DNA from: Escherichia phage L14
Length of the DNA: 64,000 bases
Reading direction: 5' to 3' (one strand)
Sequence record: OQ992558.1
The position numbers were made by a program, and so were the translations under genes. The notes beneath the pieces are model-generated. The model made no database searches. It saw only the letters and a program-made list of their open reading frames with translations, and was not told the origin of the DNA. Shown here in pieces: positions 984 through 56,227 of the stretch. Numbering within the stretch: the first letter of the stretch is position 1; each line of letters begins with the position of its first letter.

Positions 984-1316
984 TTATTTTACTACTTTCC
1001 AGTGTTGCATGTCAAGTTTACCGACTTTTTTCATCTTCTCAATTAAGCGTTCGGCACGTTGGCGAGCTGTAACATAATGCCATTCGCCTAATTCATTTTG
1101 TTCAATTTTTCCAACGATTACTGTATTCAATTCATAAATCCAACCAGTAAAGAAATTATGAACTTGAATTGTAAAGGTGAAATCTGTTCCCATACCTTCT
1201 GTTGTTTCTACTTCAATAATATCACCTTCAACTGCCATTAAGAACCACATAGTTTCATCATATTTACCATTGAAGCATTTAGTTTTAACTGCAGCGTTCA
1301 GATTAATCGTTTTCAT
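984..1316 (-). CDS. hypothetical protein (110 aa)
   Basis: ORF in early block. Confidence 0.45.
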   Translation of the reverse strand: MKTINLNAAVKTKCFNGKYDETMWFLMAVEGDIIEVETTEGMGTDFTFTIQVHNFFTGWIYELNTVIVGKIEQNELGEWHYVTARQRAERLIEKMKKVGKLDMQHWKVVK

Positions 1317-1343
1317 TTTATTCTCCTTTGTTTGTGTAAGATA

Positions 1344-1373
1344 ATACTATCACAAAGGAACCATACTGTAAAC
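1344..1373 (-). promoter_or_regulatory. T4-early-type promoter (GTTTAC -35, 18-nt spacer, TAGTAT -10)
   Basis: plus-strand gtaaac at 1368-1373 and atacta at 1344-1349; matches T4 early promoter architecture. Confidence 0.45.
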
Positions 1374-1395
1374 AACTTTGTGCAATCTTTGGAAA

Positions 1396-1421
1396 ATAAA
1401 AAAGGACTCCCGAAGGAGTCC
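1396..1421 (-). terminator. rho-independent terminator; GGACUCC-UUCG-GGAGUCC followed by U-tract
   Basis: Perfect 7-bp stem with UUCG loop then UUUUUUAUUUU on minus strand, immediately downstream of ORF 1427-1603. Confidence 0.7.
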
Positions 1422-1426
1422 TCAAC

Positions 1427-1603
1427 TTATGCTTTCTGCTTACCAAAACGAGAAGCATCATCTCGAAGAACCGCACGTGCTCGGCGCATGATCTTCTCAA
1501 CAGTTTGATTGATACGAGAGTTCGACCCACGCTTGTAGCCAGCGCGTTTAGAATCACCAACTTTCTTTTCAACTGCTTTCTTTGCTTTAACTTGTTTTGC
1601 CAT
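1427..1603 (-). CDS. small basic protein (58 aa; start taken at internal Met MAKQVK)
   Basis: Lys/Arg-rich ORF; ORF-track start at 1645 has no RBS, so start placement is inferred. Confidence 0.4.
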   Translation of the reverse strand: MAKQVKAKKAVEKKVGDSKRAGYKRGSNSRINQTVEKIMRRARAVLRDDASRFGKQKA

Positions 1604-10736: not shown

Positions 10737-13001
10737 TCATAATTTACAGGATGAACAATCTTCAGCTTTTGGAGTTTCTATTTCATAATCATCAGTACCA
10801 GAACCATCGCGTGTATTATGATAATAGAAATTTTTAATGCCATAATACCATCCGTATAGCATGTCATCAATCATTATTGACATTGGAACCTTTCCTTTTG
10901 GAAAAATCTGCGGATCATAATATGTATTCGCTGAAGCTGATTGACATACCCATTTCAGCATAATAGCTACCTGCGTAAGATAAGGTTTATTACCTTTCTT
11001 GGCTAATTTCCATGTATAATCATAGAGGTCTATGTTATGCTCAATATTCGGAACAACTTGATTAAATGAACCATCTTTTGATTCTTTAACACTTACCGGT
11101 CCGCGTGGAGGCTCGATGCCGTTTGTACTGTTAGATACCTGACTGGACGATTCACAAGGCATAAGTGCTGATAATGTGCTATTACGGATGCCAAAGAGCT
11201 TAAGGTCTTCCCGCAGCGCCGACCAGTCACAAACGTATTTTGGAGCTGCGATTTGGTCAATCTTTTTATTGTACCAGTCGATAGGTAATTCGCCTCGAGA
11301 CCAACGAGTGTCTGAATAATATTCGCAAGGTCCTTTTTCTTTGGCGAGCTTAATGGATGCTTTAATGAGTCCATACTGTAATCTCTCAAATAATTCATGT
11401 GTTAAATCGTTAGCATCTTCATAAGAAGCAAAGTTACTTGCCAGCCAAGCTGCATAGTTGGTAACACCTACACCAAGGTTACGGCGCTTTTTAGCTTTTT
11501 CTGCTTCAGGAACTGGATATCCTTGGTAATCCAACAGATTATCAAGAGCACGAACTTGAACTTCTGCCAATTCATTAATTTTATCTTGGTCTTGCCAGTC
11601 AAAATTATCTAGTACGAATGCAGAGAGAGTACACAATCCAATTTCAGCATCAGGACTATTCACATCATTTGTTGGAATAGCAATTTCACAGCACAAGTTA
11701 CTCTGACGAATAGGCGCCTTTTCACGAATAAACGGAGTATAGTTATTCGTATTATCAATGAACTGCACATAAATCCTTGCGGTTCCTGAACGTTCAGTCA
11801 TGAGCAATTCAAATAGTTCACGGGCTTTAATACGCTTTTTACGAATATTAGGGTCTTTTTCTGCTGCTTCGTATAATTCACGGAAACGGTCTTGGTCTTT
11901 AAAATAAGAATAATAAAGCTCGCCACCCATTTCATGCGGACTGAACAAAGTAATGTAATCATTCTTTCCGAATCGTTCCATCATCAAATCATTCAGTTGA
12001 ACACCATAATCCATATGACGAATGCGGTTTTCTTCTACGCCTTTGTTATTTTTCAAAACAAGAAGATTTTCAACTTCCAAATGCCAAATAGGATAATAAG
12101 CAGTAGCAGCGCCGCCACGAATTCCACCCTGTGAGCATGATTTAACAGCAGTCTGAAAATGTTTCCAAAAAGGAATAACACCAGTATGGCGTACTTCACC
12201 CATGCCAATCTTAGAACCTTCAGCACGAATCATACCAACGTTAATACCAATTCCAGCGCGTTTAGAGATATATTCAACAATTGAAGCAGAAGCCTTATTG
12301 ATAGACTTCAGTGAATCGCCTGCCTCAATAACAACACATGAACTAAACTGCCGAGTTGGAGTACGGCAACCAGCCATAATAGGAGTTGGTAATGAAATCT
12401 GTCGAGTAGATACCGCTTCATAAAAACGGATAACATGTTTTAATCTATCAACAGGTTCATCTTGATGCAATGCCATTCCAATAGTCATAAATGCAAACTG
12501 TGGAGTTTCATAAATTTGACCAGTGGTTTTATCTTTAACTAGATATTTTTCTTTTAATTGCATCGCCCCGGAATAAGTAAATTCCATATCCCGCTCGTGC
12601 TTAATTTTTGATTCTAAAAATGTAATTTCTTCTGCTGAATATTTTGACAATAATTCAGGGTCATATTTACCTTCATTTACACAGTAAGAAATATGGTCAA
12701 TAAATGAACGTGGTTCATACTGCCCATAAACATGCTTACGAAGAGCGAACATTAAACAACGTGCAGCTACATATTGATAATCAGGCTCTTCAACCGAAAT
12801 AGAATTCGCAGCGGCCTTAATGACAATAGTCTGAATATCATCAGTTGTCATTCCATCACGGAGATAAGATTTAATATTTTCATATAATTCATAAGGATCT
12901 ACTGATGTTCCTTCAGCTGCCCAAGATAAAACTTTAATAATTTTTTGCGGGTCAAAGCTCTGAGAAACACCACTACTTTTGATAACATTAATTAATTGCA
13001 T
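10737..13001 (-). CDS. nrdA: ribonucleotide reductase large subunit (754 aa)
   Basis: Class Ia RNR alpha; C-terminal CSSCKL-type tail; length equals T4 NrdA. Confidence 0.92.
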   Translation of the reverse strand: MQLINVIKSSGVSQSFDPQKIIKVLSWAAEGTSVDPYELYENIKSYLRDGMTTDDIQTIVIKAAANSISVEEPDYQYVAARCLMFALRKHVYGQYEPRSFIDHISYCVNEGKYDPELLSKYSAEEITFLESKIKHERDMEFTYSGAMQLKEKYLVKDKTTGQIYETPQFAFMTIGMALHQDEPVDRLKHVIRFYEAVSTRQISLPTPIMAGCRTPTRQFSSCVVIEAGDSLKSINKASASIVEYISKRAGIGINVGMIRAEGSKIGMGEVRHTGVIPFWKHFQTAVKSCSQGGIRGGAATAYYPIWHLEVENLLVLKNNKGVEENRIRHMDYGVQLNDLMMERFGKNDYITLFSPHEMGGELYYSYFKDQDRFRELYEAAEKDPNIRKKRIKARELFELLMTERSGTARIYVQFIDNTNNYTPFIREKAPIRQSNLCCEIAIPTNDVNSPDAEIGLCTLSAFVLDNFDWQDQDKINELAEVQVRALDNLLDYQGYPVPEAEKAKKRRNLGVGVTNYAAWLASNFASYEDANDLTHELFERLQYGLIKASIKLAKEKGPCEYYSDTRWSRGELPIDWYNKKIDQIAAPKYVCDWSALREDLKLFGIRNSTLSALMPCESSSQVSNSTNGIEPPRGPVSVKESKDGSFNQVVPNIEHNIDLYDYTWKLAKKGNKPYLTQVAIMLKWVCQSASANTYYDPQIFPKGKVPMSIMIDDMLYGWYYGIKNFYYHNTRDGSGTDDYEIETPKAEDCSSCKL

Positions 13002-52657: not shown

Positions 52658-52840
52658 TTATTTTGCCCAAGGAGCCCAAGGCGGAGGGTCAAGATGGTAT
52701 GAAGCTAGTTCTTCTAGAAGAGCATCTGGGGCTTCAATTCCATAATTCTGTAATACTATACGGTACTCTTTCTTATAATCACTAGAATCATTCTGGATAT
52801 TCGTAGAATGATTATCTTCTAACATCTCAAATAAATCCAT
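52658..52840 (-). CDS. hypothetical protein (60 aa)
   Basis: ORF in modB-soc interval. Confidence 0.4.
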   Translation of the reverse strand: MDLFEMLEDNHSTNIQNDSSDYKKEYRIVLQNYGIEAPDALLEELASYHLDPPPWAPWAK

Positions 52841-53472: not shown

Positions 53473-53676
53473 TCACGATTTATCCCCATAGATGTCTCTC
53501 ATTAATTTAAGCGCTGAGCGTTCTAATTTCTTTTCTTTCTCAGCACTAATCATTGATTTCATCCATTCTTCCGATTCGTTCTGCATTTCTTTATTTGCTT
53601 GTTCAACCCAACCATCATCAATATACATCGAGTTTGGTCTATTGAACCATTCAAGCATCTTCTTCAGAGCTTTCAT
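53473..53676 (-). CDS. hypothetical protein (67 aa)
   Basis: ORF in modB-soc interval. Confidence 0.4.
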
Positions 53677-54148
53677 TTGTTTTACCTAAAACAACAGTAG
53701 GAGCATCATCAAATTCATGAATTTTGAGCAAATTTGGATGTAAACTATTCCATACAGAAGAAATAAAGTATGATAAAGCATCTTCACTCGCAATTATAAA
53801 TTTATTTCCTTTATCTATTTTCCAACTATATACTGAATCGTACGAATAAAAAGATAAAGGTTTATTATTATATTGTTCTGCGCTAACATTAATGTATTCT
53901 GATTTAGTAAATGCTTCAATTGCTCTAAACGGAATATTTGGTACAGTTTCAATAATACCAATCTTTTTAAGTTTTATTTCAGCATCTTCTGGAACTGGCA
54001 TTGAAACGAAATTTTCTACGAGATACATTGGGTCACAATAACCCTTATCAATCATTACTGCTACGGTAATTGGAACGTCTTTAGCAAACGACATACTATT
54101 ACTGCTAATATACATTTCAAACAAAATCGCTTCCATAATTTTCCTCAA
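53651..54148 (-). CDS. hypothetical protein (165 aa)
   Basis: ORF in modB-soc interval. Confidence 0.45.
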
Positions 54149-54486
54149 TCACAAGATGTAGATGAACAACTAGAATCACAAGAACTTCCACATGAATCGC
54201 CTTCCCATACATGAACAGGAACATTAGTATCATATGAATCAGAACTAGACTGTGTATTCTGCGTATTAGATGATGTAGTAGGTGTTGACCAGCGCCAAGG
54301 ATTTTTATAATATTCTTGGGCTTCTTCATAAGTCATAGTAACTGCTTCTACTGTTCCATCTCCCATATAAACATACTCAACTACAGTTAAAGGAAGGTAG
54401 TCATTTGAAATAGGAACTACACCTTCTCCGGGAGTTGTAGAGAAAAAATCCGTAAAGAAACTTTTAAACCAATTAAAGATAAACAT
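54145..54486 (-). CDS. hypothetical protein (113 aa) with Ser/Thr-rich linker and C-terminal Cys repeats
   Basis: C-terminus [18 protein letters not shown] read in translation. Confidence 0.45.
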
Positions 54487-54692
54487 TACAAAAAGCCTCT
54501 TTTGAATTCAACTTGCTTCTCGCCATAATCATATCGAATCTCTGCATTAAATTCAACAGAACCATCTGCGTACATCATAAATGAATGCACAACAACTTCT
54601 GTAGACCATGGCTGTAGTTCATATTTCTTCATTACATGCCGTGAAATGATAATATCTAAATCTTCATTTGGTTTAATCCAGCGATTTAACAT
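54486..54692 (-). CDS. hypothetical protein (68 aa)
   Basis: ORF, ATGA-type overlap. Confidence 0.4.
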   Translation of the reverse strand: MLNRWIKPNEDLDIIISRHVMKKYELQPWSTEVVVHSFMMYADGSVEFNAEIRYDYGEKQVEFKRGFL

Positions 54693-54756
54693 AGTGCTCT
54701 CCTCTATAAGATAATTCTATTATACCATACTCATTTTGGAAAGTAAACCGGTAAAA

Positions 54757-54782
54757 TGAAAAAAGGACTCCCGAAGGAGTCC
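54757..54782 (-). terminator. rho-independent terminator after soc; GGACUCC-UUCG-GGAGUCC + U-tract
   Basis: Identical hairpin to the one at 1404-1421; 8 nt downstream of soc stop. Confidence 0.7.
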
Positions 54783-54790
54783 TTGAATTA

Positions 54791-55066: not shown

Positions 55067-55240
55067 TCAGTCTTCAATGAAAACTTGTGCCAGGAATTCG
55101 TGTTCATCTTGAATTTGTTTATATAAAGCCATTACAGCATTTATATTAGATCTATCTACTTTAAGTTGATAGGCATACCACTCGTATAAATTAATTAAAG
55201 CTTTTTGTCGTCTAATAAATTCTTCTTTGGATATTTTCAT
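55067..55240 (-). CDS. hypothetical protein (57 aa)
   Basis: Hand-translated; ATGA overlap with upstream ORF; below ORF-track cut-off. Confidence 0.4.
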   Translation of the reverse strand: MKISKEEFIRRQKALINLYEWYAYQLKVDRSNINAVMALYKQIQDEHEFLAQVFIED

Positions 55241-55437
55241 TTTGAATGCTCTATAATTAATTTTAAGGCTTCTTTACTGACAAAAATTTCATCAAGACCT
55301 TCTTCTACACCCCAATCAACTACACGAAGCTGATTAGATAAGAGCTCGTATGTGAGCTCCTTGTCATAATTTTTAAATAGCTGGTCAATACGTTTCTTGT
55401 GGGCTTTCTTAAGCTGGCGTTTATTTAAACGAGCCAT
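55237..55437 (-). CDS. hypothetical protein (66 aa)
   Basis: ORF between 56 and soc. Confidence 0.45.
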   Translation of the reverse strand: MARLNKRQLKKAHKKRIDQLFKNYDKELTYELLSNQLRVVDWGVEEGLDEIFVSKEALKLIIEHSK

Positions 55438-56026: not shown

Positions 56027-56227
56027 ATGGTACAAAAATTAATGGCACTTGTTAATGCCATCAAAGGTAATAAAAAGCGTATAGCTTTTACTATTTCTGC
56101 TATGGTAGGAATTTTACTCTGGAACTTTATTTTATCACCAATTGCAATTGCGCATGGTGTTAATATTCCAGTAGTTACTCTTGATACATTCGTAGATCTA
56201 GCATTTGCTTTAGTTGGGTTAATTTAA
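56027..56227 (+). CDS. small membrane protein (66 aa) on plus strand
   Basis: Strong RBS AAGGAGG 7 nt upstream of ATG; two hydrophobic segments; divergent from gene 56. Confidence 0.45.
   Translation: MVQKLMALVNAIKGNKKRIAFTISAMVGILLWNFILSPIAIAHGVNIPVVTLDTFVDLAFALVGLI

Follow-up and report, generated by a model that had tools for sequence, protein, structure and literature searches.

Within the 64,000-nucleotide stretch of Escherichia phage L14 DNA analysed here (OQ992558.1, called the window below), an open reading frame (ORF) on the minus strand encodes a 113-residue protein that ends in a cysteine-rich tail. By homology and gene order, this ORF is the phage T4 early gene mrh.1, which is catalogued already and uncharacterised. 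Across the Mrh.1 family the tail reduces to an ending of Cys-Asp units, and the same kind of ending occurs on membrane-anchored phage proteins unrelated to Mrh.1. We tentatively read Mrh.1 as a membrane-tethered, cytoplasmic tail of thiolates and carboxylates that may bind a metal, or may ligate a metal or thiol site of a host target; among the readings discussed below it is the one we favour, and we hold it to be possible rather than probable.

54145..54486, minus strand: mrh.1 coding sequence (CDS), 113 codons, ATG start, TGA stop; orthologue of T4 mrh.1 (UniProt P20706), DUF7206, phrog_2031

The ORF is the T4 gene mrh.1

The 1.5 kb surrounding the ORF show 100% DNA identity to Salmonella phage UAB_60, a Tequatrovirus in which the ORF is gp027, and 96-99% identity to well over a hundred T4-like genomes. 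The mrh.1 gene of T4T is 342 nt long and its product differs from the window protein at one residue (A95 in T4, E95 here). T4 Mrh.1, entered in UniProt as an 'uncharacterized 12.6 kDa protein in mrh-soc intergenic region', is the same gene with the same length and the same neighbours, and we found no substantive difference between the two. The protein matched the Pfam family DUF7206 (PF23836) with 102.5 bits against a gathering cutoff of 25.6, residues 3-113 lying on model positions 1-107 of 107, and it matched phrog_2031 at 1.7e-32. In Pfam and PHROGs this family is labelled as of unknown function only. The NCBIfam and PADLOC models gave no match for Mrh.1, and the defence and anti-defence families that they hold are thus unmatched. 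In the main texts of the literature there was no mention of mrh.1, of DUF7206 or of the tail sequence strings, and the gene was named only in supplementary tables. As a gene, mrh.1 is an ordinary annotated T4 ORF to which a Pfam family had already been assigned. Its product has a net charge of -12 and contains 4% Cys.

The translation, with its C-x3-C-x3-C-x4-C array, is exactly the one quoted in an original prediction made from the letters of the window, which did not give the strand. That prediction had also called such a tail unusual for a T-even early protein, a claim that does not survive, since the gene is T4's own mrh.1 and is present in more than 500 Tequatrovirus records as well as in other T4-like genera.

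A HMMER scan of 1.84 billion representative proteins returned 11 matches in about four distinct true clusters, all from T4-like phages, and a profile search of a 5.8-billion-protein set yielded 130 clusters at 90% identity, which carried PF23836 wherever they were annotated. With tblastn, mrh.1 was found in about 780 phage records, the hosts being Escherichia, Shigella, Salmonella, Yersinia, Klebsiella, Citrobacter, Enterobacter, Serratia, Erwinia and Edwardsiella. The genera that carry the gene include Tequatrovirus, Mosigvirus, Dhakavirus, Moonvirus, Kanagawavirus, Winklervirus, Kagamiyamavirus and Marfavirus. As far as these searches reach, Mrh.1 is confined to T4-like phages of Enterobacterales. 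Two alignments, of 19 and 58 sequences (A1 and A2), were made, and the statistics on the tail and on the motifs were taken over 119 clusters.

A Cys-Asp ending is kept throughout the family

The C-terminal part of the protein is made up of a linker and of the tail itself:

54208..54288, minus strand: Ser/Thr/Asn/Gln-rich disordered linker, residues 67-93, ending in the hydrophobic patch NVPVHV
54148..54207, minus strand: Cys tail, residues 94-113, with Cys 99, 103, 107 and 112, then the final Asp

Four residues placed at random in 113 fall within 14 positions with P = 0.005, and conservation is the stronger sign that the cluster is real. The penultimate residue was Cys in all 119 clusters, the last residue was Asp in 117 and Asn in 2, and an Asp stood directly after 230 of the 246 tail cysteines. 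What is kept family-wide is the pair C103-D104 and C112-D113, C99 and C107 being found only in Tequatrovirus. The array proposed in the original prediction is therefore to be divided: a cysteine tail is indeed a property of the whole family, but the four-Cys spacing is confined to 4 of the 119 clusters, all of them from Tequatrovirus. Since the tail of each of the other 115 has two cysteines and no more, at a distance of 4-10 residues, we regard C-x3-C-x3-C-x4-C as a Tequatrovirus-specific elaboration of an S-C-D ... S-C-D ending. The last two cysteines were 6-10 residues apart in 111 clusters and 5 apart in 3. In EcS1 a Ser takes the place of the upstream Cys, and only the penultimate Cys is left in the aligned tail. 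The composition of the tail is 44% Ser, 17% Asp, 16% Gly, 10% Cys and 8% Tyr.

The linker could not be aligned between genera: it varies in length and in sequence, with indels of whole codons, and the confidence score (pLDDT) of the AlphaFold2 (AF2) model is below 50 for residues 68-98. Other genera have an equivalent of the hydrophobic patch before the tail (IDTTPIVVAAAV), and the tail is retained across genera whose linkers have fully diverged. Its codons are mixed, with TCN and AGY for Ser, TGT and TGC for Cys, and GAT and GAC for Asp; this use of synonymous codons argues for selection on the protein and not for a DNA repeat, and it also argues that the reading frame is right. The cysteine tail that follows the low-complexity linker is thus real, in frame and under selection. 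The original prediction had named two findings that would speak against it. Homologues lacking the cysteine tail were looked for and none was found among the full-length homologues; a different true reading frame was also examined, and the frame of mrh.1 is upheld by the synonymous codons and by the differences in homologue length, which amount to whole codons.

We considered whether the tail might be low-complexity sequence that is simply tolerated, all function lying in the helix and hairpin described below. Its predicted disorder and the dispensability of the gene in the laboratory fit such a view. Nevertheless we judge it very unlikely: a penultimate Cys is found in every cluster while the adjacent linker is unalignable, the variation at synonymous sites shows that the constraint is at the amino-acid level, and the same ending is carried by unrelated proteins, some of which lack the hairpin.

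A few aberrant versions of the reading frame were encountered. A 70-aa ORF (54117..54329, minus strand) overlaps mrh.1 in another frame and is not conserved as a gene. Frame-shifted mrh.1 versions occurred only in isolated database records such as P0006 (141 aa), in which the mrh.1 reading moves beyond residue 59 into the 54117..54329 frame; an indel in this entry is the most likely cause. P0003 (164 aa; Escherichia phage 235Ecol030PP and 16 other sequences) is a mosaic Mrh.1 with, in order, a T4-type N-terminus and linker, a Dhakavirus-type middle (MEEIIRQPEKAGNVGAGALPLNSKKLKEHL...IDTAPIITATAVSSW) and a four-Cys tail of the T4 type; this arrangement of segments indicates recombination between mrh.1 alleles of different genera. 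In P0007 (150 aa, on a 647-nt ENA contig), 111 residues of unrelated sequence (MRVPWTARRSNQSILKEISPG...DREAWRAAIHGV), which we take to resemble a mammalian repeat-derived ORF, precede residues 1-30 of Mrh.1, and the record looks like a chimeric assembly.

A predicted amphipathic helix and hairpin precede the linker

The N-terminal part of Mrh.1 comprises four elements:

54439..54486, minus strand: N-terminal amphipathic helix, residues 1-16; AF2 helix at residues 3-15
54409..54432, minus strand: Pro/Gly hinge PGEGVVPI, residues 19-26; P19 and P25 nearly invariant (A1, A2)
54331..54387, minus strand: beta-hairpin, residues 34-52; invariant EYVYMGDG-x2-E-x-V at 37-49; AF2 strands 34-40 and 46-52, pLDDT 70-81
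54304..54330, minus strand: short helix, residues 53-61 (AF2); Tequatrovirus form only, other genera having unrelated sequence here

AF2 was run with the family alignment on the window protein and on one Dhakavirus homologue. Both models had a mean pLDDT of about 57 and were disordered from about residue 68 to the end, with pLDDT below 50 for the tail in each, and the Dhakavirus model showed the same hairpin. Structure prediction, which had been proposed as a check on the tail, thus returned a disordered second half that includes it; confidence was limited to the helix and the hairpin, and the hairpin is the only part that is confidently folded. Residues Y40, G42, G44, E47, S105 and C112 are invariant in the 58 aligned sequences. 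A profile search against PDB sequences found no match beyond noise, the lowest E being 0.14, and a Foldseek search against the PDB gave nothing below E = 0.9.

The motif M-I-x-W-L-K-x-L-F opens the protein in 115 of the 119 clusters, K8 being nearly invariant, and the hinge has the consensus P-G-E-G-x-x-P. In most genera the amphipathic helix is about 9 residues long and is followed by the charged stretch K-T-K-P-G-E-G. The hydrophobic moment of the helix ranges from 0.45 to 0.80, compared with 0.27 for the targeting sequence of MinD and 0.56 for that of FtsA (E. coli sequences from MG1655), and 0.5% of shuffles of the Dhakavirus helix reach the moment observed. There was no transmembrane (TM) segment, the maximum 19-residue Kyte-Doolittle mean being 0.84, and a heuristic test gave no signal peptide, K8 and D13 breaking the N-terminal hydrophobic stretch. 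From these features we infer that Mrh.1 is a cytoplasmic protein located on the inner face of the inner membrane.

This location bears directly on the proposal, made in the original prediction, of a disulfide-rich and possibly secreted or periplasmic module. The four clustered cysteines and the hydrophobic N-terminus of the T4 form are what could suggest it. Yet the hydropathy never exceeds the value given above, the hydrophobic stretch is interrupted at K8 and D13, and a 9-residue helix followed by K-T-K-P-G-E-G cannot be a signal peptide. Moreover, most homologues have only two cysteines, and in the TM-anchored proteins with the same tail (see below) the positive charges after the TM segment predict a cytoplasmic tail. 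We therefore give this proposal hardly any credence.

The same ending is found on unrelated membrane-anchored proteins

DNA was searched with the pattern Y-D-S-G-S, 0-2 residues, C-D-S, 4-9 residues, C-D-stop, and the search recovered mrh.1 genes plus proteins outside DUF7206. Among the carriers are T4-like phages, jumbo phages of Klebsiella, a phage contig on which lysis and terminase genes follow a lambda-like order, and low-GC phages from metagenomes. In the jumbo phages K64-1 (gp618) and KP13-7 (00392), the carrier is a 223-aa 'membrane protein' with two TM segments and a long Lys/Thr-rich linker; it has a patch IDSTSIVPGVAAAVITT and ends in SSYDSGSCDSSSSSSCD, to be compared with the ending IDTTPIMVAAAVSSWTGDSSYSSYDSGSCDSSSGSCD of the Dhakavirus Mrh.1. 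Both proteins combine a long disordered linker with a predicted N-terminal membrane anchor. Unlike Mrh.1, K64-1 gp618 is anchored by a two-TM hairpin, is without the EYVYMGDG hairpin, falls outside DUF7206 and adjoins a Ser/Thr phosphatase gene. The gene is continuous in K64-1 (L045:529-1200) and in KP13-7 (L046:529-1200). In RaK2 (L044, NC_019526, 2029..2704) the 223-aa gene is split by a frameshift: ORF480 stops after an A-run, the frame that bears the tail consists of 147 open codons with no Met and is unannotated, and ORF481 was called in the third frame. The split is probably a homopolymer sequencing error, although slippage may be an alternative.

The phrog_13684 protein (104 aa, no Pfam match) starts with an amphipathic helix (MGYFTDLIKRWFKR) and ends in GGYDSGGYDSGTCDTSSYGCD; its gene comes right after those for holin, endolysin and Rz/Rz1 and before terminase and portal, in a lambda-like order, and a relative that is 47% identical has kept the ending. 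Another tail-bearing protein, of 116 aa, is encoded on an 82-kb contig between genes resembling those for single-stranded DNA-binding protein and for spanin. The L048 protein (93 aa, MIKFLKKLFG...SSSYDSGSCDSGGCDGGGGCD) has a helix of the Mrh.1 type without the hairpin. In L049, L053 and L051, which come from contigs of 28-32% GC, an N-terminal hydrophobic segment was read as a single TM segment, L051 being cut at the edge of the locus; in L049 three SSSYDSGS units are followed by SSCDSGGGGCD. Finally, a protein of 280 aa, with a long N-terminal part that has no low-complexity character, bears the same kind of ending. In every TM-anchored version Lys or Arg residues come after the TM segment, and by the positive-inside rule the tail is therefore predicted to be cytoplasmic.

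As the same Cys-Asp-ended tail is carried by unrelated membrane-anchored proteins, it looks like a reusable module. The C-terminal 20-45 residues or so, consisting of a hydrophobic patch, (S-Y-D-S-G-S)n and S-C-D-S-x(3-9)-[S/G]-C-D, might constitute a portable functional module that has gone undescribed, joined by a disordered tether to a membrane anchor (helix or TM segment) and bringing a Cys-Asp 'warhead' of thiolate and carboxylate to a target that is widely conserved and lies on the cytoplasmic side of the membrane. This generalisation is speculative and we rate it as doubtful, though worth pursuing. The recurrence of the tail on such proteins suggests a shared, undescribed target or chemistry, and if the module is real, T4 Mrh.1 is its experimentally tractable founding member.

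Two other interpretations of these contexts were tried and dropped. Mimicry of the tail of a host protein found no support within the reach of an exact pattern: among 185,579 reference genomes of bacteria and archaea, the strict pattern matched nothing but a stretch of 21 codons, a chance hit. An association with lysis genes led to no conclusion: L035 and L040 lie beside spanin or endolysin genes and the others do not.

On a 4.3-kb AT-rich viral contig (L033, about 1316..1450, minus strand) we noticed a possible 44-aa peptide (MVVGDIANDGCLCSCSESSGSSYSDSCSSYDSGSSCDSGSCGCD) with eight Cys, a putative start codon and the same kind of ending, adjoining an RtcB-like RNA ligase gene. Cys/Ser/Gly/Asp-rich C-termini resemble the cores of modified peptides, and Mrh.1 could be conceived as the precursor of a ribosomally made peptide whose Cys/Ser core is converted into thiazoles, oxazoles or thioethers, as in microcin B17, SCIFF peptides or methanobactin. 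A stand-alone peptide with the tail, putative as it is, would suit such a precursor. Against this, no YcaO/cyclodehydratase, radical-SAM, MbnBC or lanthipeptide-type gene was seen beside mrh.1 in any genus examined, the neighbours in the loci read being soc, mrh.2, mrh, srh, modA.2-4, modB and modA, and the predicted membrane anchor and folded hairpin are unlike a leader peptide. We consider this origin of the tail extremely improbable.

Possible functions of the tail

In the mechanism that we favour, the N-terminal helix would park Mrh.1 on the cytoplasmic face of the inner membrane and the disordered half of the protein would serve as a tether. The tail would then act through reduced thiolates and neighbouring carboxylates, provided by the two S-C-D units and by extra Tyr-Asp or Cys units, either by chelating a metal ion or by ligating a host factor near the membrane at its metal or thiol site. 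In T4-type phages the two additional cysteines would supply more ligands without being essential to the module. Metal binding by the tail seems to us a reasonable idea on chemical grounds. A classical zinc knuckle, zinc ribbon or Fe-S motif was considered and rejected, only two Cys being conserved, at a spacing of 4-10, with no His and no CxxC or CxC.

A different use of the same cysteines would be a redox-active dithiol tail, in which the two Cys cycle between dithiol and disulfide like those at the C-terminus of the R1 subunit of class Ia ribonucleotide reductase (RNR), Mrh.1 being a substrate or decoy of thioredoxin or glutaredoxin or, tethered to the membrane, reducing or oxidising a host protein. 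The two Cys do lie in a flexible, Gly/Ser-rich extreme C-terminus with acidic residues alongside, a disulfide loop tolerates variable spacing better than a rigid metal site, and NrdA also has an acidic two-Cys tail, ending EDCSSCKL in the window and DDCAACKL in T4. The RNR-type feature of two Cys 2-4 apart in the last eight residues or so is literally present in the window tail (C107 and C112, 4 apart, in the last 7), but not family-wide. The likeness is a loose one, since RNR has C-x2-C followed by K-L and Mrh.1 has C-x4-10-C ending in C-D; in E. coli NrdA the tail cysteines are spaced by x4. In addition, EcS1 has Ser for the upstream Cys, and a pure dithiol leaves unexplained the Tyr that stands at the Cys position in upstream repeats (SYDSGS versus SCDSGS). 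On balance a redox tail appears unlikely to us. The window nrdA gene (10737..13001, minus strand, 754 aa) encodes the large subunit of the aerobic RNR, a product that ends in TPKAEDCSSCKL, that of T4 ending in TPKADDCAACKL; of the window ORFs with at least two Cys in the last 20 residues, nrdA and mrh.1 alone are recognised protein-coding genes.

The alternation of Tyr and Cys at one repeat position, as in the L049 protein, raises another possibility, namely that the S-[Y/C]-D-S-G-S units are a short linear motif recognised by a membrane-located enzyme of the host or the phage (for instance a kinase or phosphatase, or some other enzyme that attacks Tyr, Cys or Ser nucleophiles), which the tail would titrate or by which it would be modified. 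The motif is portable between N-terminal anchors and between phages, the copy in K64-1 and RaK2 adjoins the Ser/Thr phosphatase gene, and mrh.1 belongs to the same early cluster as the genes of the ADP-ribosyltransferases ModA and ModB. However, no enzyme is a consistent neighbour across contexts, and T4-type tails have lost the Tyr units entirely while keeping the Cys-Asp units. The tail is also without Arg, the known acceptor residue of the T4 ADP-ribosyltransferases. A decoy or substrate role of this kind is in our opinion improbable.

Several points weigh against our preferred reading of a membrane-tethered tail of thiolates and carboxylates, and against its extension to a portable module. 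With its variable spacing, two conserved Cys and no His, the tail excludes a rigid metal site of the classical type, and a site of two Cys and two Asp, or one bridged by a dimer, is only conjecture. Membrane binding by the helix is deduced from resemblance alone. The protein also went undetected in T4 proteomics (see below); the lengths of its tryptic peptides explain this, but they are no proof of expression. As to the module, pairwise hhalign comparisons of the tails gave probabilities of 58-97%; because the proteins had been found by the tail motif, these scores cannot count as separate evidence for homology. The tail-bearing proteins may have converged on the same low-complexity sequence, and their gene neighbourhoods gave no consistent functional partner. 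Two observations are independent of the motif search: the architecture that these proteins have in common (anchor, disordered tether, tail), and the similarity of the patch before the tail between K64-1 and Dhakavirus.

Organisation and expression of the mrh.1 locus

On the minus strand of the window the order is gene 61 (primase), gene 56 (dCTPase), two small ORFs, soc, a terminator, a promoter, mrh.2, mrh.1, mrh, srh, modA.x, modB and modA. The elements next to mrh.1 are:

54763..54784, minus strand: intrinsic terminator after soc; 9-bp stem with 5 GC pairs, then a T run
54719..54747, minus strand: sigma-70 early-type promoter; TTTACT, 17-nt spacer, TG-extended TATAAT; best promoter match of the region, 10/12 plus extended -10
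54486..54692, minus strand: mrh.2, 68 aa, phrog_1873; its TAA stop overlaps the mrh.1 ATG (TAATG)
53651..54136, minus strand: mrh, 161 aa from the annotated ATG, T4_MRH family; downstream gene of the same unit

The promoter is predicted to drive mrh.2, mrh.1 and mrh in that order, which makes mrh.1 the second gene of a putative early operon. The predicted terminator, which is annotated at the equivalent place in phages Merlin and Marfa, keeps the late transcription of soc apart from the early unit of mrh.2 and mrh.1. An AAGAGG sequence lies 9 nt upstream of the mrh.1 ATG, and together with the TAATG overlap between mrh.2 and mrh.1 it indicates that translation of the two genes is coupled. For mrh, the ORF list gives a TTG start at 54148 that overlaps the mrh.1 stop, and database records give the ATG at 54136, preceded by GAGGAAA; from these signals the ATG seems the more plausible start.

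The gene order soc-(mrh.2)-mrh.1-(mrh)-modB is kept in at least seven genera. It is the same in T4T, T2 and UAB_60, and is kept with some gene losses in Dhakavirus, Moonvirus, Kanagawavirus, Winklervirus, Marfavirus and Kagamiyamavirus. As mrh.2 is absent in Winklervirus and EcS1, and mrh is also sometimes absent, Mrh.1 is taken to be independent of those genes.

In supplement file 4 of PMC9697503, the T4 mrh.1 RNA is classed as early and the protein is unclassified or undetected in T4 proteomics. Its tryptic peptides of 8, 53, 4 and 48 residues account for the lack of detection. The gene lies within the non-essential, deletable 39-56 region (Homyk and Weil, as cited in PMC8262927). In the supplement to a genome-wide CRISPRi-ART knock-down study (PMC11879866), T4 mrh.1 is scored 'Semi-Fit' (score 0.79, p 0.069), as one of five T4 genes of purely unknown function in that class, and mrh.2, mrh, srh and soc are all scored 'Not Fit' in the same screen. 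The mrh.1 gene is thus transcribed early and is dispensable but not neutral. T4 genetics makes it cheap to test, with a mild knock-down phenotype and a strictly conserved tail end to work with, and its conserved features reduce to a simple, testable design of membrane helix, tether and Cys-Asp tail.

Elsewhere in this part of the window, two small ORFs (57 and 66 aa; 55067..55437, minus strand) occupy the place between gene 56 and soc where T4 has the homing endonuclease gene segF, an ordinary case of presence or absence of a mobile endonuclease. Between genes 56 and 61, in an early region otherwise on the minus strand, the plus strand carries a 66-aa hydrophobic, membrane-protein-like ORF (56027..56227), which is a CDS in UAB_60, noted there as similar to T4T. 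The genes modA.2 and modA.4 (UAB_60 gp022 and gp024; about 52658..52840 of the window, minus strand, and neighbours) are labelled 'molybdenum ABC transporter, periplasmic molybdenum-binding protein ModA' there and in several other phage records; this label is an annotation error due to the shared gene name modA.

Comparison with known systems

The N-terminal helix of Mrh.1 shares the pattern [FWI]-[LI]-K-x-L-F with the membrane-targeting sequences of MinD (KKGFLKRLFGG) and FtsA (GSWIKRLNSWLRKEF, SWIKRL), and the helix of the related L048 protein reads MIKFLKKLFG, to be compared with the GFLKRLFGG of MinD. The helix is N-terminal in Mrh.1 and C-terminal in MinD and FtsA, and the proteins are not homologous. 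The tails of NrdA and Mrh.1 are alike in being flexible and acidic and in having two Cys, but that of NrdA has no Tyr/Asp repeats and ends in K-L or K-I, so that the likeness is a chemical one only. For the mode of action that we favour, the closest parallels are with metal-binding peptides. Phytochelatins, (gamma-Glu-Cys)n-Gly, offer alternating thiol and carboxylate ligands, as does Cys-Asp. Like phytochelatins, (Glu-Cys)n peptides and metallothioneins, the Mrh.1 tail would present thiol ligands, along with carboxylates, on a flexible peptide, a parallel that extends to established chemistry only. Phytochelatins and metallothioneins have many Cys, whereas the Mrh.1 tail has two to four, is joined by alpha-peptide bonds and has no CxC or CxxC clusters.

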